From NCBI GenBank assembly GCA_038059415.1, contig JBBTJN010000033.1, positions 9,330 through 73,329 of the forward strand: DNA of 64,000 nucleotides, written 5' to 3'. The position numbers were made by a program, and so were the translations under genes. Source of the stretch: Elusimicrobiota bacterium. Its GTDB lineage: Bacteria; Elusimicrobiota; Elusimicrobia; UBA1565; UBA9628. Position 1 is the stretch's first letter. Each line of letters opens with the position of its first letter. This document shows, one piece after another, positions 9,101 to 26,609 of this stretch. Under the pieces are notes generated by a model. The model did not search any database. It was not told where the DNA came from and saw nothing but the letters and a program-made list of their open reading frames with translations.

Positions 9101-9667
9101 GACGAGCATACGCACGACGCGTTGACCCGCCGCCCGGGCTCGCTGCGCGAGACGCTTGCGGGCGTCGGGGCCGCCGTTATGGCGGGACGAGAGGTCGTGC
9201 TCAATGTTCCGGTTCTTCGGCGCAACCTGCTGCGGCTAATTCCCATCGTGACCTTGGCCGCCAAACTGGGCGTGAGGCGCGTTCAATTCTGCTTTCCACG
9301 GCCGGTGGAGACGGCCGACGGCCTTCAAACGGAATTCCTCCCCCGGCTTTCCGACGCGGCCCCGCGCGTGCGCGAGGCGCTGCGCGCCGCCGCGGCGGCG
9401 GGGCTCTCGGCCTCGACGGAGGGCATCCCCTTCTGCCATCTCGACGCGCGGCAGCGGTCGGGCCCCGACTCTGATGAGCGGTGGGCGCGCTTTCGCGTCG
9501 ACGATCTCCATCGCCTCGAAGAGGCGCTGGGTCCCGCCCGGTCCGGAGCACGCCCCGAGGCGCCGGTCTGCCGCGGCTGCGGCGTCCGTGATTCGTGCCC
9601 GCGCACCTGGGCGCTTTACCTCGCGGTGTTCGGCAGTTCCGAGTTGTCGCCTCTCGCTATGACATAG
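6197..9667 (+). CDS. Giant fusion protein (1156 aa). It has an N-terminal domain of unknown function, a 2x[4Fe-4S] ferredoxin domain, a carbamoyltransferase (NodU/CmcH/TobZ/HypF-like) and a C-terminal rSAM-like TIM-barrel domain. The rSAM Cys triad of that last domain is degenerate.
   Basis: The ferredoxin domain contains CTGCGTCAEVCP and CLGCFDCVEACP. The carbamoyltransferase core (WILGLAV..., HHLSHAASAW, LAGGVALNCRMN, VVCWFQGRSEFGPRALGARSLL) matches the Kae1-like carbamoyltransferase fold. The C-terminal region is homologous to the rSAM domains in this locus but reads DCDPAHAP where they have CxxxCxxC. It ends with the CRGCGVRDSCPRTWALYLAVFGSSEL tail. Confidence 0.8.
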   Translation: MITTSWPVTDYFGTRLKPRSLVEGPARLGLRDFTLVLGDEGAILKLSGDLGSDSVARAMTWLRGRLSPFLPCRAEIGAAKPGGDFEDRRRRPTWIIALGEIFDEAKDAARVEAEVLLRLGAQARVISWRRPGGPRGVRPARIVAASLEPRALAWLESAMAEDEEAAPADADMLLDGLEWGVARRPTIARASAAGEAAPILVDPARCTGCGTCAEVCPTRSMALRGTFAPGGVERCLGCFDCVEACPQDALRPRYGDSSATTARSLAGRPGWLSRLRGAPGPVLPALFPPSYLLPKPEPQAKPKWILGLAVTTRQEHAAALLEDGSVAGAVEEERLSRVRHHGYAPKGRPGSTLASDPTVCLEEVLCRRAVGALLLERSLTLDDMDVIAVNGIPARYRGAYSAHEAGKTIPVLRVGRVVYVPHHLSHAASAWRVSGQKDSWVLSVDGRGDRETAAVFRGRRGRLRQIGEILSLTDRSIGGVYETVTRLLGFGSHGQGSVMALASFGKSRFDLTRYLSRRARGAYSIHEWGIGERFKSLARASGAPLKSGHKNMAASLQAALEKIVLAILKDAGVPRDASGLCLAGGVALNCRMNELIRRTFKPRAMFVQPAANDAGTALGAALEAAAIVGMPAARALEHAGLGPAFTEDEARTALEHAGLGYTRPASVARETAALLVKGDVVCWFQGRSEFGPRALGARSLLADPRRADMRARVNRLKERESWRPFGPSILAGHEKEWFEDGFDSRFMLFARKLKRGRAARVPAVAHVDATSRPQSVHAAASPLYHELLTAFHEMTGVPMVLNTSFNRGGEPIVCSPHDAVDCFLGMAEAGALILGPFVARREPARRDIDAVALPSLPGGRRLMLRLTARDDCDPAHAPIADIAHLGDRTFEDAVRAMDAGRKASCSELVIMRGEATLRPDLEELLRRARAMGYGFIQIQTSGRSLARAGIRARLLPLVDAFEITLFAADEHTHDALTRRPGSLRETLAGVGAAVMAGREVVLNVPVLRRNLLRLIPIVTLAAKLGVRRVQFCFPRPVETADGLQTEFLPRLSDAAPRVREALRAAAAAGLSASTEGIPFCHLDARQRSGPDSDERWARFRVDDLHRLEEALGPARSGARPEAPVCRGCGVRDSCPRTWALYLAVFGSSELSPLAMT

Positions 9668-9685: not shown

Positions 9686-10789
9686 TTGAGGAGGTCTAAT
9701 TACGCTGTGATCATCAAACTCCTCCTGGCGTCTCTGTTCATAAGTCCCACCTCCGCTGTCGCGGTTGATTCCCCGCGGGGAGAAAGCCTCACCAGCACGG
9801 CTCGCGTGAGCGCCAATCAACGGATTTCCGAGCGCTGCCGGAGGCCGTTGTTCAGCGTCGATGAAATTCTAGCCGACGCGAATCTTCGCTCAGATATGGC
9901 GACCTGCGCCTGCACTGAGGGGGCAGACCCTAATGACTATGTCGCGTGCCGCGCTCTGCAGGGAGCGTCCGACGGATGCGAGTCGCTTGAGCATTTCGGC
10001 AAAAAACGCGCGAATGTGTGCCGGATTGCAGTGCTGACGGACCTCCTTTTGTATCAGATTTGGCGCGACGGCGACGCGCCCACCGCATGCCGGAAACTGA
10101 TGGAGGTCGAAGGCGTGCGAGGGCCTTCCCTGGAGAAAGGCTGCGCCGCTTTGATCCGGGGAGTTCGCGGCATAGACGTTGCGGCGTCCTGCGTGGTGCT
10201 CAAGAGGGAATTCCCATTCGACTCCCAGGAACAGTGCGAACCCTTACTGAAGGCATGGTCCGGAGAGATTAGCGCCTGCAAGGGGGGGAACAAGGATTAC
10301 CTGCGCTCCTGCCGCGCGCAAGCGGCTTTGGTGGCCGGTCTGCGCGATCCCGCCCGGTGCGCGGCTTCGCCCTCGTGCCAGGCGCTTATTGCGAAGTCGC
10401 CGGGAGCGTGCGATGGCTTGCGCGAGCAAGTCTCCCGCGCGCTCTGCGCAGGCGTCGCCAAGAATCTCGCCGCCGAGCAACAGCGTTTGGCTCAGGAAAT
10501 ACGCAAAGAGGACATACGCAAAGCGGAAATGCGCCAAGAGGAAATGCGCCAAGCGGAAATACGCAGTCGAAAGGAACTGCAGAAGAAAATTGCGGACGAG
10601 GCTGCGGCGCGGGCCGCAGCCGCAGCCAAGATTGCCAAGGAGAAGCCGCAGTTCCGCAAGGGTGAGCCGATGGAGACGACCGACCCTCATGTTTTGGAGA
10701 GAATAAAAGCGATCGAAGAAGGCCGTCCCATTCCCATTCCCAAACCTGAGCCCAAGATGGGAACCGAGAAGGCCCCGGACGAGGAGTAA
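9686..10789 (+). CDS. Secreted Cys-rich protein with a C-terminal coiled-coil repeat region.
   Basis: The signal peptide is MRRSNYAVIIKLLLASLFISPTSAVA. There are more than 20 Cys, and the EIRKEDIRKAEMRQEEMRQAEIR repeats are encoded by 15-nt tandem repeats. Confidence 0.45.
   Translation: MRRSNYAVIIKLLLASLFISPTSAVAVDSPRGESLTSTARVSANQRISERCRRPLFSVDEILADANLRSDMATCACTEGADPNDYVACRALQGASDGCESLEHFGKKRANVCRIAVLTDLLLYQIWRDGDAPTACRKLMEVEGVRGPSLEKGCAALIRGVRGIDVAASCVVLKREFPFDSQEQCEPLLKAWSGEISACKGGNKDYLRSCRAQAALVAGLRDPARCAASPSCQALIAKSPGACDGLREQVSRALCAGVAKNLAAEQQRLAQEIRKEDIRKAEMRQEEMRQAEIRSRKELQKKIADEAAARAAAAAKIAKEKPQFRKGEPMETTDPHVLERIKAIEEGRPIPIPKPEPKMGTEKAPDEE
10496..10570 (+). repeat. Five tandem 15-nt repeats (GAAATMCGCMAAGMG) encoding E-I/M-R-K/Q-E/A pentads.
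   Basis: Read directly from the sequence: gaaatacgcaaagag / gacatacgcaaagcg / gaaatgcgccaagag / gaaatgcgccaagcg / gaaatacgcagtcga. Confidence 0.6.
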
Positions 10790-11118: not shown

Positions 11119-11217
11119 TTCTCATCTATGGCATAAAATAGAATGGCCGGGACGAGGTTAAGCCGCTACCATAAGCACAGTCTCCCTGCTTTTCGACTTT
11201 CACTCCAAGAGGAACCC

Positions 11218-11865
11218 ATGAGCGCATGCGACCAAGCCGAAATAGCCTTTGATCTCGACGAGAAGCTATACCCTCTCGAGGCCGTCCAGAACGCAATCTA
11301 CGTCTTCACCGACCGCGCTTATGTGCGTGTTGAGCGCTGCGCGCCGGAACGACTCCAGGTCGTCATGACGCTCAAGGCGGGGGCTGCGCCGTCCGCTCAG
11401 AGCGCGTTGAAGGGGGAGTTCGACAACGAGCTCATTCACCAGATTCTCCGTCAGCGCGTCTCAGATTCCAACCAGAAGATCCGCGAGTACATCGTGACCA
11501 AGGCGCTGGTCTCGGCCCTGCCGTCCTCACCAGCGGCCGGATCGTCGCCGGTCGCCGCGCCTGGCGAAGCGCCCTGTCCGGAATGCGTCGAGGCGGAGGG
11601 GGCGCCACCCGCGCCGCCGCAGATCGACGCGGCCCTGGAGAAGGAAATCGACCGGCTCCTGGCCGAGATCGAGAGCGGCGACGGCGCGGCCGATCCCTTG
11701 GGCGTGTCCGTTCCTTGGGAAGAGGCGTTCGGTGCCAAAAGCGGAAGTCCGAAGAAGACAATCTCCGTTCCAGACAAGACAAAGGCTCCCGCCAAGGCGA
11801 CGGTTTCCTCCAAGTCTCGGGCGTCCGCGAGGGTGAAGGCGCCCGCCAAAGAGAAGCGTTCATGA
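11218..11865 (+). CDS. hxsD: HxsD-like protein of the His-Xaa-Ser system, with an extended Pro/Ala/Lys-rich tail.
   Basis: The position is right: immediately upstream of, and overlapping, the HxsB rSAM. The conserved core FDNELIHQILRQ resembles the LLNDYxLRE signature of HxsD. An AAGAGGAA RBS precedes the internal ATG at 11218. Confidence 0.5.
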   Translation: MSACDQAEIAFDLDEKLYPLEAVQNAIYVFTDRAYVRVERCAPERLQVVMTLKAGAAPSAQSALKGEFDNELIHQILRQRVSDSNQKIREYIVTKALVSALPSSPAAGSSPVAAPGEAPCPECVEAEGAPPAPPQIDAALEKEIDRLLAEIESGDGAADPLGVSVPWEEAFGAKSGSPKKTISVPDKTKAPAKATVSSKSRASARVKAPAKEKRS

Positions 11866-13358
11866 GCATCGCCAGGGCCGTCGACATCCCCGTCCTCAAC
11901 CCCGTCAAGACGGGCCCTTTCCGTTTTCGCAAGGTGTCAGGAAAGATGCTGATCACCAACGACTTGGGCCGTCACCATCTTCTTGATGACGCGCAGTTCC
12001 GGCAATTCGTCACCGGGGAGCTCAGGCCGGGCGATGTCCTGTACGAGAGGCTCAAGGTCGACGGCTTCATCCGCGACCAGATAGATTTCGACGCCGTGGC
12101 CGGCGTGTGGGCGCGGCGCAATAAGTTCCTCTGGCACGGCCCGGGCCTCCATGTGATCGTGACGACGCTGCGCTGCAACCACCGCTGCCTCTATTGCCAC
12201 GCCAGCGCGCTCGGCATGGCCGACGCCTCCACGGACATGACCGAGGAGACCGCGCGCAAGGTCGTCGACCGCATTTTTGAAAGCCCCAGCTCCGCGATCA
12301 CCATCGAATTCCAGGGCGGCGAACCGCTGGCGAACTGGCCCGTGGTCAAGTTCGTCGTCGAGTACGCGACCGAGAAGAACAAAATCGCGGGAAAGAGCCT
12401 CTGGCTGAACCTCGTCACGAACTTGAGCCTCATGGACGACGAGAAGCTTGATTGGCTGCTCAAGCGCGGCGTGAACTTCTGCACGTCCATCGACGGGCCG
12501 GCCGCCCTTCATGACCGCAACCGCCCCTGGAGCAAGGGGGCCAGCCACGCCGAGACGGTCAAGTGGTTCAAGAAGATCAATGCAAAGACTCGGAACAAGA
12601 TGTTCCGCATCGACGCGCTGTTGACGGTGACGCGCCTGTCGCTGAGCCAGCCGCGAGAGATCGTGGACGAATATGTTGCGCTTGGCTCGCGCGGCGTGTT
12701 TCTCCGGCCTCTGAATCCCTACGGGATGGCTGTGGCCACTTGGAACAAGATCGGCTACGGTCCGGAAGAGTTCTTGGTCTTTTACGCGAAGGCCCTCGAC
12801 CGGGTACTTGAGGTCAACAAGAAGAGAGGTCTGCGACAGCCTTTTTTTGAGCAAACGGCGCGTCTCTATTTGGCCAAGATCCTGACCGACGACGACCCGA
12901 ACTACCTAGACCTGCGCTCTCCTTGCGGGGCGGGCATAGGTCAGATGGCCTACAACTGGGACGGCTCCGTCTTCACCTGCGACGAGGGCCGCATGCTCAA
13001 CCGGATGGGCGACGATACCTTCCTCATCGGCAAGGTCGGGGAAGGCACCTATGCTGAGTCGGTCGGGCATCCCGTCGTCCGGGCGCTGGCAATCGCCTCC
13101 AACCTCGACAATCAAGTCGAGTGCTCTAAATGCGTCTACAAGCCCTACTGCGGCATTTGCCCAGTCCAATGCTACAAGGACCAAGGCGATATTACTGGAC
13201 GCATGCCGACCAACTCCCGCTGCAAGATCAGCATGGGCATCCTCGACCTCCTGTTCGAGCGCCTTCAGGACAAGCGTAACGAGCGTATCTTCCGATCTTG
13301 GTTGAAAAAGAGGAAGGGCGAGAATGAAAAAGTCGCCGCGCTCTACCAGCGCGGTTAA
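11862..13358 (+). CDS. hxsB: His-Xaa-Ser system radical SAM/SPASM maturase, HxsB-like.
   Basis: The rSAM motif is CNHRCLYC. The C-terminal SPASM domain carries CGAGIG...FTCDEG and CSKCVYKPYCGICPVQC. It sits immediately upstream of the His-Gly/Ala-Ser repeat precursor. Its start ATG overlaps the hxsD stop (ATGA). Confidence 0.8.
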   Translation: MSIARAVDIPVLNPVKTGPFRFRKVSGKMLITNDLGRHHLLDDAQFRQFVTGELRPGDVLYERLKVDGFIRDQIDFDAVAGVWARRNKFLWHGPGLHVIVTTLRCNHRCLYCHASALGMADASTDMTEETARKVVDRIFESPSSAITIEFQGGEPLANWPVVKFVVEYATEKNKIAGKSLWLNLVTNLSLMDDEKLDWLLKRGVNFCTSIDGPAALHDRNRPWSKGASHAETVKWFKKINAKTRNKMFRIDALLTVTRLSLSQPREIVDEYVALGSRGVFLRPLNPYGMAVATWNKIGYGPEEFLVFYAKALDRVLEVNKKRGLRQPFFEQTARLYLAKILTDDDPNYLDLRSPCGAGIGQMAYNWDGSVFTCDEGRMLNRMGDDTFLIGKVGEGTYAESVGHPVVRALAIASNLDNQVECSKCVYKPYCGICPVQCYKDQGDITGRMPTNSRCKISMGILDLLFERLQDKRNERIFRSWLKKRKGENEKVAALYQRG

Positions 13359-13370
13359 GAGGATCGTGAA

Positions 13371-13823
13371 ATGGATGACATGGACAAGAAGAAGGACGCT
13401 TCCAAAGGGGAATTCGTTCCGCGAGTCGCCAAGGACCTCTCCCGTTTTTTGACCAGCGAGGAGGGTAAGATTCTTAAAAAAGACGTGCTCAAGGCGGCGG
13501 CGGTTCTGGGCATCATCGGGGCGGCCATCATGCGCGCGGAGGATCTGCTTGCGCAGTCTCACACCAACGCGATCCACAACTCCGGAAACGCCCCGGCCCG
13601 GCATAGCAGCCACAGCTCTCACGCCAGCCATGCGTCTCACGGCAGCCACGGCAGCCACGGCAGCCACGGCTCGCACGGGAGCCACGGCTCACATGGGAGC
13701 CACGGCTCGCACGGGAGCCACGGCTCGCACGGGAGCCACGGCTCCCACGCCTCGCACGGCTCCCACGGATCCCACGGATCCCACGGATCCCACGGTTCAC
13801 ATGGCAGTCACGGGCAATGGTGA
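13371..13823 (+). CDS. hxsA: His-Xaa-Ser repeat precursor protein, HxsA-like.
   Basis: 150 aa. It has an N-terminal region with a hydrophobic helix ([16 protein letters not shown]). The C-terminus is (H-S/G/A-S)n, about 25 tripeptide repeats, [20 protein letters not shown]...GSHGQW. Confidence 0.8.
13602..13811 (+). repeat. About 23-25 tandem 9-nt repeats (CAC GGN AGC and variants) encoding His-Gly/Ala-Ser.
   Basis: Directly visible as cacggcagccacggcagccacggctcgcacgggagc... Boundaries are approximate. Confidence 0.85.
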
Positions 13824-15720
13824 GGCCAGCCGCCAACGACGCGCCGGCCTGATACGTCTGGCGCGGACCGCAGCGAAGGCGGTCCGCGACGCGGGGGTGG
13901 TCCCGGCGCGAGCATGCATTCGTGTCGATCCCTCCGTTGACGCACCCGTCTGCGTGTGGAGGGCCCTGCCGAGGGCCGGACGAGCCGCAGAATTCCTGGT
14001 GCCGCCGCCTTTGCTCGATGCGGACGCCGGTCCGCGCCTCGCGGGTCTGCTTTCGGTCGCTCTGGCGCGGGCGGGAAACGGATCGTCATACCCCGCTTTA
14101 CCGACCGCTGCCGCCGTGCAGGTTCTCCTTTTTCGCAGCCTTCTCGAGGCGCCGGGCAAGGAAGGAGCGGATCGTCTCAACCAGGGGACATTGTATCTCG
14201 CCTCGGCGTTGCGCGCGGCCGGAGCGGAGGTCGTCCTTTCCGACGCCAAGGTCTCCCGCTTCGCTCGCGAGCCGCGAGAACGAGAGGACCTCGCCCGCCT
14301 GCTCAAAGCCAATCCGGACATCACCTTGGTCGCGCTGAGCCTGTACGATGCCTACTTCGAGGATGCCGCAGCCCTGGTGAGCTTCTTGCGCGAACGCACG
14401 AGAGCCCGGATCGCGATCGGGGCGCTCATGCCCACCCGCGACCCGGAGTCCGCCCTCCTTCATCTGCCGGGCGTCGACTTCGTCTGTCGGGGAGCCGGCG
14501 AGGAGATCCTTCCACGGTTGGCCGCGTTAGCCTCCGTTTGTCCGAGGAGCGCCTTCGACGAGGCCGCCCAAGGGGCGCTGCTCGCCATGGACGGCGTGCT
14601 GGCCGTCGACGACGGGCGTTCGTCCTATTGGGCAGGGGCCGAGGACATCCTGCGCGTCCCCGATCTCGATGCCTCGGCTCTCGACTTCTCGTTCGTGGAA
14701 CGCCGCGACGTTCAATCAGGGCCGACGTTCTGCCTCTCGAGGGGCTGCGGGAGCGCCTGCCACTTCTGCACCTCCCCGGATCAAGGACGCTTTCACGGCA
14801 AGAGCGCCGTCGAGGTCGGGCGGGTGCTGGCCGGGTATGGACGCCGGCTCAAGGAGCTTTATGGGTCCTGGAGCGCGGCTCCGGACGACGCCTTCGCAAT
14901 TGGATTTTATGACGACGACTTCCTGTCCGACGCGCCGCGGGCGTTGGCCGTTTTTGACGTCGTGCGCCGTTCGCCTTTCCATCTGCGCTTTCTACAGGCG
15001 AGCATTCGAGCTTTCTTCCGGCGCGGCAAGGGCGGCGCGATTGGGGGCCTCGACGAGAGCCTGCTTGATGCGCTGTCGCCGGAACTCTTCGTGCCGAAGC
15101 TCGGGCGAGGAAAAGCCTCCCGTGGTCCCCAGCTCTATCTGGGCACCGAGAGCTTCTGCGACGCGGAGCTAGCGCGCCTGGGCAAGGGTTATGGCGTGGC
15201 ACAGGTGGAGGACGTGGTCCGAGCCCTCTCGCGACGGGGATTGAGCCAAGCCCACCACTTTATCGCGACGAACGCCCGTACCCGCCCCGAGGATGTGCTC
15301 GATAGCCTCGGGCGCATCGTGCGCCTGCGCGATGAGTGCGGCATGGATTTCGGCGTGCTCGAGCCCGTAATCTCCCATCTCGTCTCCTTCCCCGGGACCG
15401 CAAGCCTGCGCGCGCTTCAGCGCGAGAGGCTGGATGCGTGCGTCGAGTCGCGCGGCGTCCTGGCCGTTGCGGGCTTCCCGGAATTCGATTATCCTCTCAC
15501 CGTCCGGGAGGTGCCCGCCGACGCAGACGTCGCGGCTTGGGTGGAGCGGCTGAAAATGAAGGGCGCCGGGTTGGATTGGGAGAACGAGTTCGAGGGATTG
15601 CTGTTTGAATGGCTCCTGCTCAGTGAGAGCCTCAGCGCGCGCGGCGCGCAACCCGAGCGCGCCGCGAATCTTCGCCGTGCCGTGGACGCGCAGGCGGGCC
15701 TCATGGGGACGGCACCATGA
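13801..15720 (+). CDS. B12-binding-domain radical SAM protein (class B-like) with an N-terminal extension. The start is uncertain.
   Basis: A Rossmann-like B12-binding region (VQVLLFRS...[13 protein letters not shown]...) is followed by CGSACHFC (CxxxCxxC) and a GTESFCD GxES-type motif. The track ORF starts at 13549 inside hxsA. An ATG at 13801 overlaps the hxsA end. Confidence 0.55.
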
Positions 15721-16721
15721 GCCGCCATCGAAGCCTGAAGGCTAATCTTCAGCTGTTCGTGACCAGACGCTGCCAGCTGCGCTGCCGCTACTGCCCTATC
15801 CTGAAGGGGGAGTCCATCATGCCGCTGTCGACCGCGCTCAGGGGCGCCGACCTGCTCCTGGGGCACGGCTCCTCGCGTTTGCGCCTTGACTTCGGCGGAG
15901 GGGAGCCGTTGCTGAACTTCGACGTGGTGCGAGAGGTCTCGGACTACGCCCTGCGCCGCGCCAAGAACCTGGGCAAGGACCTGCGCTTCTACATGGTCAC
16001 CAACGGCGTCCTGATCGACGATGCTTTCCTGGAGTGGGCGCGCGACCGGAAGGTTCTTTTGGAATTCAGCATGGACGGAACGCGCGAGGACCATAACCGC
16101 TACAAGTCCGCCTACGACCGCGGGCTCGATCCTTACGCTGCCACGCGCGCGGGGGTGGAGCGCGCACAGCGCTCCGGGATCGCGCATTTCGTCATCATGG
16201 TGGCCAGCCCGGCCAATGCGAGCCGCCTCGCGGAGAATTTCGAGCATCTCTTCGACATCGGCGTGCGGCGCGTGGACCTGAGCTACGCCGTCGGCGGCGT
16301 CTGGTCCGCGCAGGATGAGGCGGTCTACTTCGAGCAGGTGTCGCGCGTCCTGACCCGCCACGCCCGCGCGCTCGACTCCGGCGAGATCCATCTCGGCAAC
16401 GCGCGTCAGCGTCTCGAGCCGACCATCCTTAACAGCGAGCTGATGGTGGATCCCGACGGATCGCTGCATCAGATGAGTGAGTGGATGTTCGAAACGACTC
16501 CTGCGAAGACGACACCGCCGTTCCCCGTGGGTACGCTCGACACCGTCAAGAACATCAACGTCCTGCGCTGGAGCCGATTCCATTCCTACTACACCCTCGC
16601 GAAAATGCACGAGGGCAATTCGGAGGTTCAGGCGGCTCTGCTCAACAACATCTCCTTCGGACTGCGCGTCGGCAAGTTCTTCCGCGCGGCCGTGGGGCGC
16701 TTAGGGAAGGTGCCCGCGTGA
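15717..16721 (+). CDS. Radical SAM protein, a candidate HxsC-type partner maturase.
   Basis: The motif is CQLRCRYC and the glycine-rich motif is GGGEPLL. The C-terminal LNSELMVDPDG segment is shared with paralogs at 16718 and 20108. Confidence 0.7.
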   Translation: MSRHRSLKANLQLFVTRRCQLRCRYCPILKGESIMPLSTALRGADLLLGHGSSRLRLDFGGGEPLLNFDVVREVSDYALRRAKNLGKDLRFYMVTNGVLIDDAFLEWARDRKVLLEFSMDGTREDHNRYKSAYDRGLDPYAATRAGVERAQRSGIAHFVIMVASPANASRLAENFEHLFDIGVRRVDLSYAVGGVWSAQDEAVYFEQVSRVLTRHARALDSGEIHLGNARQRLEPTILNSELMVDPDGSLHQMSEWMFETTPAKTTPPFPVGTLDTVKNINVLRWSRFHSYYTLAKMHEGNSEVQAALLNNISFGLRVGKFFRAAVGRLGKVPA

Positions 16722-17935
16722 GGAGTCTCTACGAAGCCTCGATGGCTCGCGCCGAGCGCGCGCTCCTCAACGCGGACAAGGACGGCGGCGTTTGCGCGCG
16801 CCGGACCTTGGCGGCCCTCGACGCGGCTCTTTTCGAGGCCTTGCGCCGGGCCGAGTCCGCTCCGGATGGCTGCGCCCGCGCCGCGCGCCGCGCCGAGCTC
16901 AGGGGCTGGGCCTTCTACCGGCGTCGCCTGCTCAGCCGCCTCATTAAGACCGGATTGCGACCCAACGGCGACCACCTGCGGGCGCTTTTCTCGGGCTCGG
17001 GGAGCGACCGGCTGATCCTGCTCGTCACCCACGCCTGCCAGCTGCGCTGCGCGTATTGCCGCGTTCGCAAGTATGGCGCGACGATGGATGCCGAAACGGC
17101 GGATGCCGGGGTGCGCTGGCTGATGAGCTCGCTGCGTCGGGACGTGGAGCTTCAGTTCTTCGGGGGCGAGCCGCTCCTGGCCCTGCCCATCCTGCGTCGC
17201 GCGGTCGCCCTTGCAGAAACCTCGGCCCGAAACGCAGGGAAAAGCGTGCGCTTTCTGTTGACGACCAACGGCCTGGCGCTTGATGAAAAGGCGATTTCTT
17301 TCTTGCGGGAGCATCACTTCACCGTGGAGGTGAGCTGCGACGCAACGATGAGCGCCCAGGACGCCCAACGCCCGATGGCGAAGGGTACGAGTTCGTGGTC
17401 TGCGCTGCGTTCCGGTATGGAGCGCCTGCGGCGGGCCGAGATTCCCCATCAGGTCATCGCCGTGGTGCTCCCGGAAGACGCGGCTTGCGCGCACGAGCGC
17501 GTCGCGGCTCTGGCGGAGATGGGCCACCGGCGCATTCAGATCAACTATGCTCTCGGCCGCCACTGGACCGATGACCAGGCAGCTGCCTTGCGCGAGTCCA
17601 TGGACCGCGCCGCAGCCGCCTCCAAGCGCCTGGGAGTCGAACTGGTCAACCTAACCGTGAAGCGCCGCGAGCCGGTAGTGCTCAACAGCGAACTTACGGT
17701 GGACTGCGACGGGACGGTGTTCCGCGAAACCGGGGTGTGCCTGGAGGAGGATTTCCAGGAGATGAAGAAGCGCTTTCGGGTGGCCGACATTAGGAATGCC
17801 GGGCTCTTCGAAACCTACGGGGCCACGCCCTTCGACAACTTCGCCATCCTCGCCTCGGCGTACGGCCGCGGAGAGATGCGCAGCATCTTGCTCAGCAATC
17901 TCGAGCTTGGACGTTCGTTTGCGAGGGCGAAGTGA
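16718..17935 (+). CDS. Radical SAM protein, paralog of the 15717 gene.
   Basis: The motifs are CQLRCAYC and FGGEPLL, and LNSELTVDCDG is shared. The GTG at 16718 overlaps the upstream stop (GTGA). An alternative ATG lies at 16745. Confidence 0.65.
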   Translation: MRSLYEASMARAERALLNADKDGGVCARRTLAALDAALFEALRRAESAPDGCARAARRAELRGWAFYRRRLLSRLIKTGLRPNGDHLRALFSGSGSDRLILLVTHACQLRCAYCRVRKYGATMDAETADAGVRWLMSSLRRDVELQFFGGEPLLALPILRRAVALAETSARNAGKSVRFLLTTNGLALDEKAISFLREHHFTVEVSCDATMSAQDAQRPMAKGTSSWSALRSGMERLRRAEIPHQVIAVVLPEDAACAHERVAALAEMGHRRIQINYALGRHWTDDQAAALRESMDRAAAASKRLGVELVNLTVKRREPVVLNSELTVDCDGTVFRETGVCLEEDFQEMKKRFRVADIRNAGLFETYGATPFDNFAILASAYGRGEMRSILLSNLELGRSFARAK

Positions 17936-20118: not shown

Positions 20119-21976
20119 GAAAATACTAAACACGACGCGCTCGGTCATGCTCATGGCCACGTACGAGTGTCAGTTGCGCTGCGCCTACTGCCAGATCCGG
20201 CGTGGGCCCCGGCGCATGGACGAGCGCACGGCCTTGCGCGGCGCGGACCTTCTTCTGTCGTCGCATGCCGACCATCTCCTCCTCAACTTCTTCGGCGGCG
20301 AGCCCCTGTTGGTCTGGGACCTGGTGCGCAAGACGGCGGCCTATGCCCGCGAGCGCCGCGGGGGCCGCCCCTTGCGCATCAACCTCACCACCAACGGCCT
20401 TCTGCTCGATGACAAGAAGATCGAATTCCTTCAAAGTGTGGACGGCTATGTGCACCTGAGCCTCGACGGCCCCGCCGAGGCCAACGCTTCGCGCCTGCGC
20501 TCCGCCGGTCCCGGCGCGCAGAAGGCGATGCAAAGTGCGCTCCGCCGTCTCGCGGCCTCCGGCCTGCCATACCATGTCAACGCCGTCGTCGATCCCGTGC
20601 GCGCGGCCTCCTTCGACTGCGACTTGCTCGCCCTCGAGGATCTGGGCGCGCGCCGTATCCAGTTCGGCTATCAGGTCGGCGTGCTTTGGAGCAAGCGGGC
20701 CATCGGCGACCTTCTCGCGGCGCTCGACCGCTACGCGGCGCGCGGGAAAGCCGAGCTTAACAACCGCACCTCGGACAGCGAGCCGGTTATGCTCAGCCAG
20801 GAGGTCATCGTCGATACCGACGGCCGCATTTATTGGGACGGAGGGCTCTTTCTAGAGGCGACCTTGCCGAAGGTGCGTGAGGCGCTGCTCTTGGGATGCC
20901 TCGACGCGTCGCCCGACGTTGACGCCTTCGAGCGAGAGCCGCGCAAACCCTACGAACGGCTGACGACCGCCTACCCGGCGAACACGAAGGGCGGTCATAT
21001 CATCCTCAATAACGTCAAGGTGGGCCTGGCCCTCAAGCGCCATTGGGTGGGCCAGCGCGGCAACGAGGACCCCGCCATCCGGCGCGGCGTGGTCCAGGCG
21101 CGGTTCACCGAGCAGGTCCGCTTCCTGAAAGAGCGCATGCCGGGGCTCGACCGCGTATTCCTCTTCATGAAAGGCGGCTGCGACCTGGACTGCCTGTTCT
21201 GCCGCAACAAGCCGGAGAAGGATTATCAGACGCTTGAAGAAATAGACGCTTGTCTCGCCGAGAACGCCGTATTGCGTCGTGCGAAAATCGCTTTAGTCGG
21301 CAACGAACCCCTGGCTCATCTACAGATCGCCGACATCGTGAAGTTATGCCGCCACTGGGGCTTCACCGACATCGAGGCGATGACATCCGGTCTGCGCCTG
21401 GAGGCGCTGGCGCGTCCATTGGCCGATGCCGGCATGAGTTCCTACGCTTTAGCTCTTCACGGCTCGACGGCCAAAGTCCATGACGCCGTGGTCCGCCATG
21501 ATGGCGCGTTCGACGCCGCCTTGCGCGGCGCCGAGGGGGCGCAGGCGGCCGGTTCGCGAGTCTTTGTGCATGCCAGCGCCTGCCGGGCGAACCTATCCGA
21601 TCTCCCAGCCCTCGAAAAGCTGGTCCGCGAGCGCGCCTGGCCGTTCTCGATTCACCCGCTGCGTCCCAAGGACGCCGACGGCATGAACGAGCCCTACGAC
21701 AAGATCGCGCCGGACTATGCCGAGCTTCGCGCCGCTTTGACCGGCCGCGTTAGATCGCTGACCGGCTTTCCCTCCTGCGTGGCCCGCGCCGTGCAGGGCC
21801 GAGCTTCGTGCCCGGCCGCGCAGATCGCCGATTCCATGCGGCTTTACCTCCATCATCAGGCCTTCGTGAAGCCCGCGACATGCTCCGCGTGCCCGGAGCG
21901 CGAGGATTGCGTGGGCACATTCGAAGAGCATCTCCGCTCCCGTCCCGCGGAGAAAAAGGAGCTGACTTTCTCATGA
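20108..21976 (+). CDS. Tandem double radical SAM domain protein.
   Basis: Two CxxxCxxC motifs are present: CQLRCAYC near the N-terminus and CDLDCLFC at about residue 360. The N-terminal half is paralogous to the 15717 and 16718 genes. The tail is CSACPEREDCVGTFEEH. Confidence 0.75.
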   Translation: MPSKKILNTTRSVMLMATYECQLRCAYCQIRRGPRRMDERTALRGADLLLSSHADHLLLNFFGGEPLLVWDLVRKTAAYARERRGGRPLRINLTTNGLLLDDKKIEFLQSVDGYVHLSLDGPAEANASRLRSAGPGAQKAMQSALRRLAASGLPYHVNAVVDPVRAASFDCDLLALEDLGARRIQFGYQVGVLWSKRAIGDLLAALDRYAARGKAELNNRTSDSEPVMLSQEVIVDTDGRIYWDGGLFLEATLPKVREALLLGCLDASPDVDAFEREPRKPYERLTTAYPANTKGGHIILNNVKVGLALKRHWVGQRGNEDPAIRRGVVQARFTEQVRFLKERMPGLDRVFLFMKGGCDLDCLFCRNKPEKDYQTLEEIDACLAENAVLRRAKIALVGNEPLAHLQIADIVKLCRHWGFTDIEAMTSGLRLEALARPLADAGMSSYALALHGSTAKVHDAVVRHDGAFDAALRGAEGAQAAGSRVFVHASACRANLSDLPALEKLVRERAWPFSIHPLRPKDADGMNEPYDKIAPDYAELRAALTGRVRSLTGFPSCVARAVQGRASCPAAQIADSMRLYLHHQAFVKPATCSACPEREDCVGTFEEHLRSRPAEKKELTFS

Positions 21977-22923
21977 CCGCCCCCGGGATCCTTGCGGCCT
22001 CCCGGCGTTTGGAGTTGCATCTCTCCTACGTCTGCGGCCAGCGCTGCGCCTTCTGCTCGGAGAGCGTGCGCATGGACCGATGGCGACACGCGCCGCTCAA
22101 GGGCGAAGAGATATCCGCTGTCCTCATCAAACGCCGCAAGGCGGGCTTCAACCACGTGACCTTCACCGGAGGGGAGCCTACGGCGCAGGCGCTCCTGCCG
22201 GCCGCGCTCGCTGCGGCCCGTAAGCTCGGCTTCAACACATATCTGACCACCAACGGCGGGCTCTTCGCTCAGGAGAAATACGCCCGGGAGGTCCTGCCGC
22301 TCGTCGATGAAATCTGCCTGTCCGTTCACGGCCCCGACGCCGAGACCCACGATGCCGCGGCCGACACGCGGGGCTCCTTTGATCGGGCGATGAAGGCCCT
22401 GGCCAACATCGAGGCACACGGCGCGAGCACCTACCTTCTCACCAACACCGTCGTCACGCGACTCAACTGGGACCGTCTTGAGGACACCTTGGCCCTGCTG
22501 ACCTCTCATCCTAAGGTCCGGCATTGCCTCCTCTCCAACGTCGCTCCGGAAGGCCGCGCGTCCGGCGCTTACAAGTCCTTGGTCGTGCCGCTGTCGAAGT
22601 GGCGTCAGCGAGTGCCTGCGCTCGCCCGCCCCTTCGAGACAAACGGCGTGGTCCTGCGGCTGTTCGGCCTGCCTCTGTGCGTCCTAGGCGGGCGGCTGGA
22701 ACTGTCCAATGACGCCCATTATTCCCCGCGTGTGACCGTGGAGCGCCGCGGCGCGAAAGGCAGGCCCGGCCTGAGCGCAATCGCCAGCGTCGACGCCTCG
22801 CGCCGCCGCAGCAAGCCCGGAATCTGCCGCTCCTGCGACGGGCGTGGAGATTGCGCCGGCGTATTCGACCGCTACCTCGCCGCTTACGGAAGTTCGGAGC
22901 TCGCGCCCCAGAGGGCGAACTAA
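21973..22923 (+). CDS. Radical SAM protein.
   Basis: The motifs are CGQRCAFC and TGGEPT. The tail is CRSCDGRGDCAGVFDRYLAAYGSSEL. The ATG overlaps the upstream stop (ATGA). Confidence 0.75.
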   Translation: MTAPGILAASRRLELHLSYVCGQRCAFCSESVRMDRWRHAPLKGEEISAVLIKRRKAGFNHVTFTGGEPTAQALLPAALAAARKLGFNTYLTTNGGLFAQEKYAREVLPLVDEICLSVHGPDAETHDAAADTRGSFDRAMKALANIEAHGASTYLLTNTVVTRLNWDRLEDTLALLTSHPKVRHCLLSNVAPEGRASGAYKSLVVPLSKWRQRVPALARPFETNGVVLRLFGLPLCVLGGRLELSNDAHYSPRVTVERRGAKGRPGLSAIASVDASRRRSKPGICRSCDGRGDCAGVFDRYLAAYGSSELAPQRAN

Positions 22924-23864
22924 TGGCCACGCTCGCATATCTACAGGTTGCGCGCATCTGCAATCAAAAATGCCTGTTCTGTTCCAACCCGGAGAACGGG
23001 CGCGTGATCTCCTGGAAGGAAGCGACGGATCTGGTGGATTGCTTTGCCAAGGAGAAGGCCGCCGGAGTGATCATCACTGGGGGCGAACCGACCTTGTTCG
23101 ACCGTTTGCCGGAGTTGGTGGCCTACGCCCTCAAGAGGGGATTGCCGCCGCGTCTCATCACCAACGGTCAGCGAGTCTGCAGGCCTGATTACCTCAAGGC
23201 GCTCGTCGACGCCGGGCTCAGCCACATGCATATCTCCGTGCATTCGGCTAGGCCCGAGGTGCAGGGAGAGCTCACGGGCAATAACAACTCTCTTGCGAAC
23301 ATACTGCGCGCCCTGGAGAACGCCGGGAAGCTGGGGGTGCGCGTGGACATCAACAGCGTCATCAATAGTCGCAACGCCGGGCACCTGAGCTACACGCCGC
23401 GCTTTCTCGTTGAGCGCTTCCCGTTCCTTTGCCACTTCGTCTGGAACAATCTGGACCCGCAGATGAATGCCGCCTCGCTCAATGCCGAACTCGTGCCCAA
23501 GTTGAGAGCATTCGAGGTGGAACTCCATCGCGCGATGACCTGGCTGGCCAAGGCCGGGAAAAGCTTTCGCGTCGAGCGCGTGCCGCTCTGCTTCATGTCC
23601 GATTTCGGTCATTTCTCCACGGAGACGCGCAAGTTCGTCAAGAACGAGGGCCGAGACATCTATTTCTTGGACGAGAAGGGACGCAAGAAACAGGACAAAA
23701 GCTCCTGGAGTTACGACAAGGCGCCGCGCTGCAAGGCGTGTTCCGTCAATAAGATTTGCGCCGGGTTGTATCAGATGGACGTGTACTACTCTTCCTCGGA
23801 GCTCTGTCCCATACTGACTCCGGCAGACGAGGTGGTCGCGAAGGTCCGCGCGGAGGCGTCATGA
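22923..23864 (+). CDS. Radical SAM protein, paralog of the minus-strand gene at 25671..26609.
   Basis: The motifs are CNQKCLFC and TGGEPTL. The tail is CKACSVNKICAGLYQMDVYYSSSEL. Confidence 0.75.
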   Translation: MATLAYLQVARICNQKCLFCSNPENGRVISWKEATDLVDCFAKEKAAGVIITGGEPTLFDRLPELVAYALKRGLPPRLITNGQRVCRPDYLKALVDAGLSHMHISVHSARPEVQGELTGNNNSLANILRALENAGKLGVRVDINSVINSRNAGHLSYTPRFLVERFPFLCHFVWNNLDPQMNAASLNAELVPKLRAFEVELHRAMTWLAKAGKSFRVERVPLCFMSDFGHFSTETRKFVKNEGRDIYFLDEKGRKKQDKSSWSYDKAPRCKACSVNKICAGLYQMDVYYSSSELCPILTPADEVVAKVRAEAS

Positions 23865-24817
23865 GCGATCGGGTCGATCTTAAGGTCGGGTTTCGCTGCA
23901 ACAACTACTGCCAATTCTGCGTGCAGGGCGATAAGCGCGAGCGCCTGCCGGTCAAGCCCGAGGCGGAACTGATCAAGTCCCTGGAAGAAGGGAGAGCGGG
24001 GGGCGCAATCGGCGTCGTCATTACAGGCGGCGAGCCCACCCTCCACGAGGGAATCGTCAAGATCGCGCGCGCGGCGCGCGACCTCGGCTACACCCTCATC
24101 CAGGTGCAGAGCAACGGGCGCACCTTCTGCTACGAAGATTTCTGCAAGCGCCTCATCGACGCGGGCGTCAACGAGTTCGGGCCGTCCCTGCACGGCTCGA
24201 CGGCTAAAATACACGATTATCTTACGGGATCGCCCGGGGCCTTCATGCAGGTGGTCTCCGGCATACGCAACCTCAAACGCCTTAAGCAGCGCGTCATCAC
24301 CAACTCGGTGATCACCAAGGTCAACTACCGCGACCTGCCCTCCTTGGCGACCTTGCTCGTCGCCTTGGATGTGGAGCAGTTCCAGTTTGCCTTCATGCAT
24401 ATGAGCGGACGCGCGGGGGAGAACAAGGAGTGGCTGACCGCGCGCAAGAGCCTCATCGAGCCGTACGTGAAAAAAGCGCTCGATGTCGGCATCAGGGCGG
24501 GCAAGATCGTGATGACCGAGGCCATCCCATACTGTCTGATGAATGGCTACGAGGCCTATGTCGCCGAGCAGATCATACCGCGAACGCGCATCTACGACGC
24601 GGACTGCGTGATTGCCGACTACACGCGTACGCGCATCGACGAGGGCAAGAGCCGCGGGCCGCGGTGCGTCGAGTGCGACTGGCACTTCAAATGCGAGGGG
24701 CCGTGGAGGGAATATCCCGAGCTGTTCGGCTGGGACGAGTTCGTGCCGGTTAAGAAGGCCGCGCCCGCGCCGAAGAAGGCGGCGCCCGTCGCCAGAGCGG
24801 AGAGAAAGAAACGTTGA
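23861..24817 (+). CDS. Radical SAM protein with a Lys/Ala/Pro-rich C-terminus.
   Basis: The motifs are CNNYCQFC and TGGEPTL. The tail is CVECDWHFKCEGPWREYPELFGWDEF. Confidence 0.75.
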   Translation: MSDRVDLKVGFRCNNYCQFCVQGDKRERLPVKPEAELIKSLEEGRAGGAIGVVITGGEPTLHEGIVKIARAARDLGYTLIQVQSNGRTFCYEDFCKRLIDAGVNEFGPSLHGSTAKIHDYLTGSPGAFMQVVSGIRNLKRLKQRVITNSVITKVNYRDLPSLATLLVALDVEQFQFAFMHMSGRAGENKEWLTARKSLIEPYVKKALDVGIRAGKIVMTEAIPYCLMNGYEAYVAEQIIPRTRIYDADCVIADYTRTRIDEGKSRGPRCVECDWHFKCEGPWREYPELFGWDEFVPVKKAAPAPKKAAPVARAERKKR

Positions 24818-25674
24818 GGAGCGAGGATCTGTTGGTTCTGGTCCTCACGCGCCGCTGCGAGCGGCGGTGCGGTCATTGCCCGCAGTCCTTCGACGAGGCC
24901 GACATGTCCGAGGGCACTCTCGACGCGGCATTGGAGGGCCTGCTGCCGCAACTGCGCCCTCCCGCCCGCGTCAAGCTGTTCGGCGGCGAGCCCCTGCTGC
25001 GCCCGGACCTCGTGACGCGCGCCCTTGAGCGCCTGGCGGTCCTGGCTCCGGGCACGGCCGTGGAACTTCCCACTCACGGCACGGGACTGTCCGCGGTGGA
25101 GGCGCTTCTGGCTCGCCGTCCCGAGGTGGAGGTGTTTGTCAGCTTCGCCGATCCCGCGGCGGCCCGCCTGTCGGGCGTGGTGCACAACTTCTTGATCCCG
25201 CCCGGAGAGGCCCCGGCCTCAACGGCGCGCCGCATGGCTCTGGCGCGCAAGCGCGGCTACAACCGTTTCAACTTCCTGCCCGCTTACTTCGTGCCCTGGA
25301 CGCCCGCTCAACTCAAGGGCCTGGCCTCCTGCTTTGCCGCGGTGCGCAGGGTGCTCGACTGCTGGTCCGCCGCAGGCCGCTGCGCCGAGGTGGTCAATCT
25401 CTCTCGGCGCGGGACGACGCCGCTGTACAACGATGGCCTGGTCGTCGACACCGACGGCGAGGTGTACAACTCGAATCTGATTTTGGCCGCCGCCGTTAGG
25501 CCTCACAGGGGGAGGCTGCATCTGGGCCGGGTACACGAGCCCGGCAATCTGTCCGCGCGACCGATCGCCGAAGCCGCGCAAGTCATGCGGGACTCCTTTC
25601 CCGCGGATGTCTTGGCGGCAACGTCGGCGGTAGACGCGGAGCTGACCGCGTTCTGCCTCAGGCTCTCCCGCTAG
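24814..25674 (+). CDS. Radical SAM protein.
   Basis: The motifs are CERRCGHC and FGGEPLL. The TTG start overlaps the upstream stop. Confidence 0.65.
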   Translation: MRSEDLLVLVLTRRCERRCGHCPQSFDEADMSEGTLDAALEGLLPQLRPPARVKLFGGEPLLRPDLVTRALERLAVLAPGTAVELPTHGTGLSAVEALLARRPEVEVFVSFADPAAARLSGVVHNFLIPPGEAPASTARRMALARKRGYNRFNFLPAYFVPWTPAQLKGLASCFAAVRRVLDCWSAAGRCAEVVNLSRRGTTPLYNDGLVVDTDGEVYNSNLILAAAVRPHRGRLHLGRVHEPGNLSARPIAEAAQVMRDSFPADVLAATSAVDAELTAFCLRLSR

Positions 25675-26609
25675 GGGCTTGCCCTGATCCTGCGCCGCAC
25701 CTCTTGCGCGGGCAGGGCGGACGGACACAACTCCTGCGACGAGTAGTGCGTGTCCATCTGATACAGCCCCGCGCAGACCGAAGTCAGCGAGCAATCCTCG
25801 CATCGCGGGCTCTTTGCGTAGCTCCAATGAAGACCGTGCTGTTCCTGAAGGCCCTTCTCGTCGAGGAAGTAGATGCTGCGCGACTCTTTCTTGACGATCC
25901 GACGCGTCTCAGTCGAGCACTCCGGATAATCCGACATGAAGCACAGCGGCACGCGCGCGACGCGGAAAGTCCGTCCGGTGGAGTCGAGTTGGGCCATAGC
26001 CTTGTGCAGTTCTATCTCGAGGTCGCGTAGGCGCGCTACCAGGTCAGGGCCCAGGGACGCGCCGTTCATGAGCGGGTCGAGGTTGTTCCACACGAAATGG
26101 CGCAGATAGGGCCAGCGTTCGATGAGCCAGCGCACCAAAGCGGAGAGTTCGCTCGCGTTGACCTTGGTGATAGTGGTGTTGATGTCCACCGTGAGGCCGA
26201 GCGCGCCCGCGTTGTCCAAGGTCTTGATGATGTTGGCCAGGGAGCGAGGGTTGCGGGAGAGGGACGCCTGGGTCTTGCCGGATGGGGAATGGACCGAGAC
26301 GTGCATGAGGCGCAGGCCGGCGGCGTAAAGCGATTTCAGGTATTTCGGATCGGCGGTTTTCTGGCCGTTGGTGATGAGGCGTGGCGTCAGGCCCTTGTCG
26401 ATTGCGTAAGCCGTCAATTCGGCGAGCTCCTTGAAGAGGGTGGGCTCGCCGCCGGTGAGGATAAGTCCGTCGTAGTTCTTCGCGGCGAAGCCGTCGACGA
26501 GGTCGATGGCCTCCTTCCAGGAGAGGACCATGCCGTTGTCGGGGTTGGAGCAGAAGGTGCACTTCTGATTGCATAGGCGCGATACCTGCAGATAAGCCAT
26601 TTCGGCCAT
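25671..26609 (-). CDS. Radical SAM protein, convergent with the plus-strand array.
   Basis: The motifs are CNQKCTFC and TGGEPTL. The tail is CEDCSLTSVCAGLYQMDTHYSSQEL. The track ORF extends to 26834, but the internal ATG at 26609 (MAEMAYLQV...) matches the paralog N-terminus and abuts the upstream stop. Confidence 0.7.
   Translation of the reverse strand: MAEMAYLQVSRLCNQKCTFCSNPDNGMVLSWKEAIDLVDGFAAKNYDGLILTGGEPTLFKELAELTAYAIDKGLTPRLITNGQKTADPKYLKSLYAAGLRLMHVSVHSPSGKTQASLSRNPRSLANIIKTLDNAGALGLTVDINTTITKVNASELSALVRWLIERWPYLRHFVWNNLDPLMNGASLGPDLVARLRDLEIELHKAMAQLDSTGRTFRVARVPLCFMSDYPECSTETRRIVKKESRSIYFLDEKGLQEQHGLHWSYAKSPRCEDCSLTSVCAGLYQMDTHYSSQELCPSALPAQEVRRRIRASP

Follow-up and report, generated by a model that had tools for sequence, protein, structure and literature searches.

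A long C-terminal His-Xaa-Ser array in a radical-SAM-rich Elusimicrobiota locus: putative core region of an HxsA4-family peptide precursor

The canonical HXS system, HxsD-HxsB-HxsC-HxsA, is an antiphage system (Li et al., Nat Commun 2026; PMC13128918) whose effector HxsA contains tandem His-Xaa-Ser (HxS) units; none of these units is dispensable, covalent modification has been found at an HxS unit, and the protein is active in the periplasm (PMC13128918). The gene order D-B-C-A is kept in 99.6% of canonical systems, 99.7% of which are found in Pseudomonadota (PMC13128918), and it was only in 2026 that this branch was shown to be antiphage, with an effector modified by a radical S-adenosylmethionine (rSAM) enzyme. 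Among other rSAM enzymes, the rSAM/SPASM triceptide synthases join His-C2 to the C-beta of the third residue in the motifs HAA (HaaB), HNR (YhhB) and HTK (HtkB) through a crosslink (PMC11499958), and in the TvgA/TvgB pair one rSAM enzyme repeatedly modifies a precursor with a repeated core (PMC9062424). Here we analyse hxsA4, a gene in a 64,000-nt stretch of DNA from an Elusimicrobiota bacterium (hereafter the window, to whose positions all coordinates refer). Its product ends in a long array of HxS units and is, on the evidence of its profile match and its alignment with homologues, an unusually long member of the already catalogued but uncharacterised HxsA4 family, NF038313.

The hxsA4 coding sequence (13371..13823, + strand) specifies a 150-aa protein that matches the NCBIfam model NF038313, 'His-Xaa-Ser repeat protein HxsA4', with 112.1 bits (cutoff 55, E=1.7e-32). 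As read from the sequence and its translation, 23 consecutive in-frame HxS units occupy 13602..13808 (+), i.e. residues 78-146, so that the last 73 residues of the protein can be written (HSS)2(HAS)2(HGS)12(HAS)(HGS)6-HGQW and contain 24 His; the middle residue is Gly in 18 units, Ala in three and Ser in two. Given the amino-acid usage of the window genes (His 2.0%, Ser 5.7%), 23 successive H-x-S triplets would arise by chance with a probability of about 1e-68 per start position, and a scan of the whole window found no second HxS array. A first-pass annotation, made from the sequence alone, had described a near-perfect 9-nt tandem array of about 23-25 CAC-GGN-AGC units at 13602-13811, encoding a (His-Gly/Ala-Ser)n C-terminus. 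The array is indeed present at that location with the start at 13602, but its last full unit ends at 13808, since the CAC at 13809-13811 already opens the terminal HGQW; only 18 of the 23 units read CAC-GGN-AGY/TCN, the remaining ones encoding HSS or HAS; and 'near-perfect' is an apt description of the peptide but not of the DNA, whose 23 units fall into 14 distinct 9-mers and which scores 72% matches at period 9 in Tandem Repeats Finder. A period of 18 nt fits the DNA better (80% matches), corresponding to two peptide units with serine codons alternating between AGC and TCN. The longest perfectly periodic stretch of the array measures a mere 50 nt, and the same 150-aa gene, identical also in its DNA, occurs on contigs of at least three metagenome assemblies that are independent of one another; an assembly artefact as the source of the array is therefore excluded.

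Upstream of the array the protein displays the layout of a leader peptide, with a basic N-terminus, the motif FLTSEEGKI at residues 26-34 (13446..13472, +; family consensus FL.SEEGKI), a 13-residue, signal-peptide-like hydrophobic segment at residues 42-54 (13494..13532, +), where the family alignment shows a conserved hydrophobic block and which may serve in export, and an H-x-N motif, HTNAIHNSG (13560..13586, +; family consensus H.N.f.nsg), between the hydrophobic segment and the repeats. The Trp-ending tail HGQW, together with the stop codon (13809..13823, +), follows the last unit, and inspection of the sequence places a Shine-Dalgarno-like AAGAGGA (13357..13363, +) 7 nt 5' of the ATG. Other readings of the same DNA were considered and discarded: a 723-aa open reading frame (ORF) that runs over the array (13549-15720) and two minus-strand ORFs (12906-13685 and 13528-13836), because family homology is confined to the 13371 frame and homologues of the downstream gene begin at the ATG at 13801; and an RNA element, because an Rfam search of the window returned zero matches. 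A search for promoters and terminators around hxsA4 gave nothing above shuffled expectation, and no terminator was found after the gene.

A homologue search with the hxsA4 product over about 5.8 billion proteins retrieved 473 homologues, and the matches listed derive from metagenomes and from metagenome-assembled genomes (MAGs) labelled Omnitrophota, Elusimicrobia and Diapherotrites archaea. Among these listed homologues, and in a family alignment of 107 sequences, the basic N-terminus with FLxSEEGKI, the hydrophobic segment and an H-(T/S)-N motif recur, the leader motif FLxSEEGK being present in 106 of 120. The number of HxS units per listed homologue ranges from 4 to 29 with a median of 9, thereby placing the 23 units of the window protein in the top 2% or so. 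Tails mostly end in W or WC (HGQW, GSW, RGGWC) or are Cys-rich, and HGQW is the commonest of them (24 of 106 listed members). His and Ser are fixed throughout the family; the middle position is held by Gly in 50% of units, by Ala in 20% and by Ser in 19%, and the share of Gly at this position varies from 9 to 81% from one listed protein to another.

The two genes immediately upstream of hxsA4 belong to Hxs families. Directly upstream lies hxsB (11865..13358, +), a radical SAM/SPASM-type maturase that scores 511.3 bits against TIGR03978 (cutoff 370), matches Radical_SAM and Fer4_12 in Pfam, and is 37-39% identical to annotated plasmid HxsB proteins; it is preceded by hxsD (11143..11865, +), whose product carries the HxsD domain at residues 38-125, followed by an Ala/Pro/Lys-rich C-terminal extension, and scores 59.9 bits against TIGR03976 (cutoff 50). 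The Hxs families TIGR03976-79 reportedly go back to Haft & Basu 2011. The earlier proposal of an Hxs-type precursor adjoining its HxsB is thus borne out by the family profile matches of both hxsA4 and hxsB, and hxsD orthologues are syntenic in all nine related Elusimicrobiota loci examined below (L001-L009). The stop codon of hxsD and the start codon of hxsB overlap. At the other end, a gene for a B12-binding-domain protein with a CxxxCxxC motif (13801..15720, +; Pfam B12-binding, 50.6 bits) begins within the final units of the array and shares 23 nt with hxsA4, in a different frame; gene callers on independent contigs likewise place its 639-aa product at the ATG at 13801, and the final unit bearing this ATG, CATGGCAGC/T, is kept at the array end in five relatives. 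The rare codons of the final units are explained by this CATGGCAGC unit, which carries the start codon of the downstream gene, so that some seemingly synonymous choices at the 3' end of the array are constrained by the neighbouring gene. Both overlaps point to translational coupling, of hxsD with hxsB and of hxsA4 with the downstream gene, which we count in favour of the precursor reading set out below. About ten more radical SAM genes follow hxsA4, two of them with B12-binding domains and one with two rSAM domains. From hxsD through hxsB, hxsA4, the B12 gene and the rSAM genes up to the HxsC-like ones, the genes form an operon-like string. An hxsD-hxsB-hxsA4-rSAM arrangement is also met with outside Elusimicrobiota, among others in Omnitrophota and DPANN archaea, and five of six homologue contexts inspected in other phyla place HxsA4 beside HxsD, an HxsB some 480 aa long and 3-8 further rSAM genes, so that a suite of several rSAM enzymes is general to HxsA4 systems.

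Taken together, these observations make it likely that the array represents the core of a ribosomal precursor peptide of the HxsA4 family, putatively modified by rSAM enzymes. We propose that the leader would recruit HxsB and HxsD, with an HxsC-like partner, and that HxsB, together with these two, would modify His and/or Ser side chains unit after unit, while the extra radical-SAM and B12-radical-SAM enzymes might add further modifications; by analogy with the triceptides, a plausible first step would be a three-residue crosslink from His-C2 to Ser-C-beta in each unit. The hydrophobic segment may then direct export, the leader would be removed, and what is left outside the cytoplasm would be a long poly(His-x-Ser) chain, modified and multivalent, whose role may lie in phage defence, in metal binding, or in a function tied to the neighbouring nitrogenase-like genes. 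What leads us to this maturation scheme is the published modification of canonical HxsA, the triceptide crosslinks and the iterative action of TvgB on TvgA.

Several points weigh against the proposal. No modification has been demonstrated for any HxsA4 protein, and the only measured Hxs modification is a gain of 8 Da at a single SHRSS site, i.e. not a loss of 2 Da per unit and not clearly iterative. Export of the product is uncertain, because the hydrophobic segment starts some 40 residues into the protein and is followed by charged residues, and because the -3/-1 positions do not uniformly suit signal peptidase I across the family alignment. Neither a peptidase nor a transporter gene was found within the window, which also contains no canonical HxsC, its HxsC-like genes scoring far below the curated cutoffs. 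Lastly, one homologue (in L011) is isolated: neither HxsB nor HxsD is encoded within 10 kb of it.

If the array is a modified core, one might ask whether HxsA4 is an antiphage effector like canonical HxsA, its matured and exported HxS array blocking the entry of phage DNA. HxsB and HxsD are true members of the Hxs families, HxsA4 has a signal-like hydrophobic segment, the canonical system depends on every HxS unit and acts in the periplasm (PMC13128918), and the rapid changes in copy number described below would fit an arms-race gene. Nevertheless, we judge this identity of function to be unlikely. The peptidoglycan-binding domain that is essential in HxsA is missing from HxsA4; the middle residues are Gly, Ala or Ser rather than Arg-rich as in canonical HxsA, and such small residues weaken an electrostatic model of DNA binding; and the gene order and the HxsC partner differ. 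No recognised defence or mobile-element genes were seen around the locus, which is a conserved, very large and biosynthetic-looking cluster as opposed to a compact four-gene island. A search of the window with PADLOC (2023), which holds no Hxs models, returned only weak viperin-like matches to generic rSAM cores and is uninformative on defence. Hence, the differences in architecture, in gene order and in HxsC lead us to file the gene as HxsA4 and not under canonical HXS defence.

A different view, which takes up the first option of the first-pass annotation, would be that the tail is left unmodified and serves as a multivalent metal-binding tract for the storage or delivery of Ni, Zn, Cu, Fe or Co, perhaps in the service of nearby metalloenzymes. 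The His-rich tracts of HypB, UreE and Hpn bind Ni, and the 24 His within the last 73 residues lie in a window dense in Fe-S, B12 and molybdenum-cofactor genes, with about 20 genes of radical-SAM type, four nitrogenase-like sets, MoeA/MobA and a tetrapyrrole methylase. Known metal-storage tracts, however, are irregular, whereas HxS keeps a three-residue register and an invariant Ser across phyla, as would a recognised motif; moreover, the gene accompanies HxsB, HxsD and the rSAM suite even far from nitrogenase-like genes, and the HxS unit of canonical HxsA is covalently modified (PMC13128918). We thus regard an unmodified metal-binding tail as distinctly unlikely, and the gene context and the modified unit of canonical HxsA support the reading as an rSAM substrate better than that of metal binding, even though the two are not mutually exclusive, in that a modified product could still bind metal.

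Comparison with related loci bears on how the array evolves. Nine Elusimicrobiota MAG loci share the same gene string, with HxsB proteins 69-90% identical to that of the window. Seven of their arrays count 18, 21, 21, 24, 34, 34 and 36 units, and two more are cut by contig ends (L001, 6759-6947; L003, 11735-11806), from which it follows that short-read assemblies break inside such arrays and that copy numbers taken from MAGs need care; the counts of 34-36 in particular are less certain than the 23 of the window, because they rest on short-read assemblies, one of which (L002) contains a perfectly periodic stretch of 131 nt. With this proviso, copy number differs by up to 18 units among these species-level relatives, in line with the prediction of the first-pass annotation that repeat number would vary. 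A look-up of the exact protein in a collection of protein clusters, intended to reveal strain variants, did not contain the sequence, and the comparison is accordingly one of species-level relatives. When the window array is set against the 34-unit arrays of L002 and L004 (HxsB 88-90% identical), both array edges are kept and the difference in length resides in an interior (AB)n block; at the level of sequence comparison, this shows that array length changes through gain or loss of interior 18-nt (two-unit) blocks. Differences of this size mean that the array does slip or recombine. Repeat-bearing genes can also be present in several copies, as in an unrelated metagenomic locus (L018, 9304-10426) where three tandem hxsA4 paralogues of 17, 20 and 23 units adjoin HxsD, HxsB and three rSAM genes.

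Amid this turnover, His and Ser stay fixed. Ten related arrays yield 240 units, which comprise 50 distinct 9-mers and encode five tripeptides, with His and Ser invariant in every unit; Ser is encoded by AGY in 93 units and by TCN in 147, two codon families that no single synonymous change can link. The invariance of His and Ser despite 50 different 9-mers means that selection acts on the peptide, as had been surmised from the window alone, and codon comparison shows it to be strict purifying selection on His and Ser, with a middle residue that need only be small. As a separate observation, CAC is the His codon in 89% of the 240 units compared with 53% in the window genes; this bias and the alternation of AGC and TCN may stem from the way the array was duplicated, from translation or from overlapping features that constrain the sequence.

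The second half of the earlier surmise, namely that the DNA avoids perfect identity and that synonymous variation is maintained by selection against replication slippage, does not hold up. The diversity of Gly and Ser codons in the window array is that predicted by window codon usage (P=0.27 and 0.19, respectively), His codons show less diversity than predicted (19 of 23 are CAC, P=0.004), and identical units are clustered rather than dispersed, with four adjacent identical units (0.9 expected), five units identical at i/i+2 (0.8 expected) and an exact self-match that extends over 32 nt at its longest (18.6 expected). Synonymous diversity at or below the genomic expectation refutes the anti-slippage reading for the window array. 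Some of the relatives' arrays do appear to favour it, insofar as adjacent identical 9-mers number 0 in both L002 and L008, compared with 4.0 expected by permutation in either case (P=0.011 and P=0.006, respectively), and serine codons alternate between AGC and TCN. Yet these arrays are built of 18-nt blocks, in some cases of 27-nt ones, in which AGC and TCN take turns as the serine codon, and a duplication unit of this length explains the missing adjacent identity without any selection against slippage, identity at i/i+2 being strongly enriched; perfectly periodic stretches in relatives extend up to the 131 nt of perfect 18-nt periodicity in L002, and copy number itself is far from stable among species-level relatives. 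As a general account, anti-slippage selection is therefore very unlikely.

It is hardly credible that (Gly-Ser-His)n forms a collagen-like triple helix in a structural or adhesin protein, notwithstanding a match to Pfam PF01391 (37.3 bits, gathering score 27.2) and weak matches to Scl/Lcl adhesins (29-39 bits against cutoffs of 325-500), given that Gly occupies the middle position in only 50% of family units, that 5 of the 23 window units have no Gly (HAS, HSS), and that Pro as well as any trimerisation or anchor domain are missing; the PF01391 match was rejected as an artefact of three-residue periodicity, because the family does not keep Gly at every third position.

The wider neighbourhood holds further candidate maturases. 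Downstream of the B12-binding-domain gene lie two radical SAM genes (15717-16721 and ~16481-17935, +; Pfam PF04055), and an Omnitrophota locus (L012) carries orthologues of the B12 gene and of these two rSAM genes in unchanged order, the rSAM proteins being 33-37% identical. They are followed by a B12-radical SAM gene (17932-20118, +) and a gene with two radical-SAM domains (20108-21976, +), both recognised by profile searches, and then, within 21808..25674 (+), by three HxsC-like radical SAM genes (starts 21808, 22851 and 23756), which find their best matches, all below cutoff, in HxsC4/HxsC, and by a further radical SAM gene (start 24814) identified by profile searches. The best-scoring of the HxsC-like genes is 23756-24817, located about 10 kb downstream, whose product is 27% identical to canonical HxsC and scores 147.8 bits against HxsC4 (NF038332, cutoff 500) and 106 against HxsC (TIGR03977, cutoff 267.9); its orthologues stand beside HxsA4 in three loci of other phyla, with 46-56% identity, and these orthologues likewise score no more than 168-181 bits on the HxsC4 model. 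A Cys-rich C-terminus ending in a G-S-S-E-L-x-P-like motif (e.g. AYGSSELAP, VFGSSELSP, MFGSSELRT) is shared by the HxsC-like paralogues at 21808-24817, 6197-9667 and 26609-30106. A Polyangiales locus (L010, HxsB 49% identical) has an HxsC-like gene but no HxS array or nitrogenase-like genes within reach, and is uninformative.

Upstream of hxsD, a Cys-rich 367-aa protein with a signal-like hydrophobic N-terminus (9686..10789, +) gave no match in Pfam and NCBIfam searches and is encoded directly 5' of hxsD in 7 related Elusimicrobiota loci as well (26-48% identity). In other phyla, namely in L011 (9208-10026), L012 (9271-10023) and L017 (8902-9981), an unannotated protein of 250-360 aa, without NCBIfam match, is encoded immediately 5' of hxsA4, the start of which it overlaps in L011 and L012, and the window has no counterpart at that position.

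The locus as a whole belongs to the type of Group VI nitrogenase-like (NflHDK, or Nfl) plus radical-SAM locus known from groundwater Elusimicrobia (Meheust et al. 2020; 10.1101/765248), the function of which is still listed as unknown in a 2026 review (PMC13474568, section 7); in the searched text of these two sources there is no mention of peptide or Hxs genes. Four Group VI nitrogenase-like gene sets lie at 31242-54262. Profile searches identify a NifH-like gene (48619-49449) and two NifH-like genes fused to a NifD/K-like domain (36438-38789, - strand, and 50595-52991), and the window holds eight further NifD/K-like genes and about 20 genes of radical-SAM type. Two paralogous fusions of about 1,150 aa, each consisting of a 4Fe-4S ferredoxin, a NodU-type carbamoyltransferase and an HxsC-like radical SAM domain (6197-9667, +, and 26609-30106, -, by profile search), bracket the hxs region, whereas their homologue in a Hxs-free Nfl locus (L021) has 888 aa and no rSAM domain. 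Other cofactor or anaerobic genes are present around the cluster (485-2409, -; 54578-55336, +; 59377-61500, +; 61610-63643, +), among which are MobA and MoeA (molybdenum cofactor), a tetrapyrrole methylase, a radical-SAM-like/isochorismatase fusion and the anaerobic ribonucleotide reductase NrdD.

The relationship between the two modules is not one of strict dependence. Myxococcota and other Elusimicrobiota provide examples of NflHDK without Hxs genes, and HxsA4 modules occur without Nfl genes in other lineages; each being found alone, the modules are separable, and the notion that nitrogenase-like genes are an obligate partner of HxsA4 does not hold in general and was rejected. Within the window, as in L007, however, genes of the kind found in Nfl-only loci (the 17932-type B12-rSAM, the 44412- and 38930-type rSAMs and the ferredoxin-carbamoyltransferase) are mixed in among the hxs genes of a single co-directional string: the three rSAM genes found with NflHDK in L021, a trio, sit inside the hxs operon in L007, and the 17932-type enzyme, a member of that trio next to NflHDK, is inside the hxs operon in the window. 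At a minimum, this gene order shows that part of the 'Nfl-associated' rSAM suite belongs to the Hxs peptide-maturation machinery. The interleaving, together with the fusion of a carbamoyltransferase to an HxsC-like domain, raises the further prospect, which we put forward as a doubtful one in view of the separate occurrence of the modules in other lineages, that the poly(His-x-Ser) peptide and its maturases share a pathway with the Group VI NflHDK enzymes in this Elusimicrobiota clade. Were this so, a locus for which the synthesis of an unknown tetrapyrrole cofactor has been proposed since 2020 would work on or with a ribosomal peptide, which could be a peptide-derived metallocofactor, a metallophore or a His-rich scaffold or carrier, and much of the extensive radical-SAM suite would be peptide-maturation machinery.

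These findings change how the Group VI locus should be dissected, now that an Hxs module is recognised within it. The repeat is the defining feature of the catalogued, uncharacterised HxsA4 branch of the His-Xaa-Ser systems; its interest, though, resides in the uncharacterised chemistry and the unexpected neighbourhood and not in the repeat itself. The arrays of this member and its close relatives, the longest seen here (23-36 units), in combination with about ten radical-SAM enzymes, constitute a good test case for rSAM chemistry on His-x-Ser and are well suited to asking whether that chemistry acts on every unit.

Seen against its own family, the window protein has the leader motif, hydrophobic segment, HxS array, Trp-ending tail and HxsB/HxsD neighbours that are common to HxsA4 members, and stands out by the length of its array, 23 units versus a median of 9, exceeded in turn by the 34-36 of its closest relatives. 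With the canonical HXS system it shares HxsB and HxsD of the same curated families (TIGR03978 and TIGR03976), tandem HxS units and an N-terminal, export-like hydrophobic signal in the effector, and a maturation that would be expected to depend on radical SAM enzymes; conversely, it has no match to canonical HxsA (TIGR03979) at E<=0.01 and, according to Pfam, no peptidoglycan-binding domain. The plasmid HxsA from Aeromonas consists of a signal peptide, then HRSHRSHSSHRSHSSHRSHYS, then a peptidoglycan-binding C-terminus, whereas the repeats of the window protein are located at the C-terminus; canonical HxsA has 5-7 Arg-rich units, and the window protein three to four times as many, with small uncharged middle residues. 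The order D-B-C-A is replaced by D-B-A followed by rSAM genes, there being no HxsC above cutoff and about ten extra rSAM genes, in an Elusimicrobiota host.

The resemblance to the triceptides lies in the motif. H-x-S has the same formal pattern, with His at position 1 and a C-beta side chain at position 3, so that the 23 units fall within the aromatic/His-X-X motif by which triceptides are defined (PMC11499958), and HxsB, an rSAM/SPASM-type peptide maturase, is weakly similar to cyclophane synthases (YhhB 53, GrrM/OscB 47.8, AmcB 44.2 and XyeB 40.9 bits, all far below the cutoffs of 310-450); the triceptide product is crosslinked, however, whereas the Hxs modification measured so far adds 8 Da instead of removing 2 Da. 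TvgA, with its (TVGG)n core, resembles HxsA4 in combining a leader with many copies of a short motif, each a presumed site of modification by a neighbouring rSAM enzyme, but differs in the motif and in the enzyme family, and the enzyme suite of the window is far larger, with no peptidase or transporter seen. With the Group VI Nfl loci, finally, the window has in common the NifH-like genes, the NifD/K-like paralogues, the rSAM and B12-rSAM genes and the tetrapyrrole methylase, its relatives likewise being Elusimicrobiota MAGs, and it differs from these loci as published by the HxsA4 module that lies inside it.

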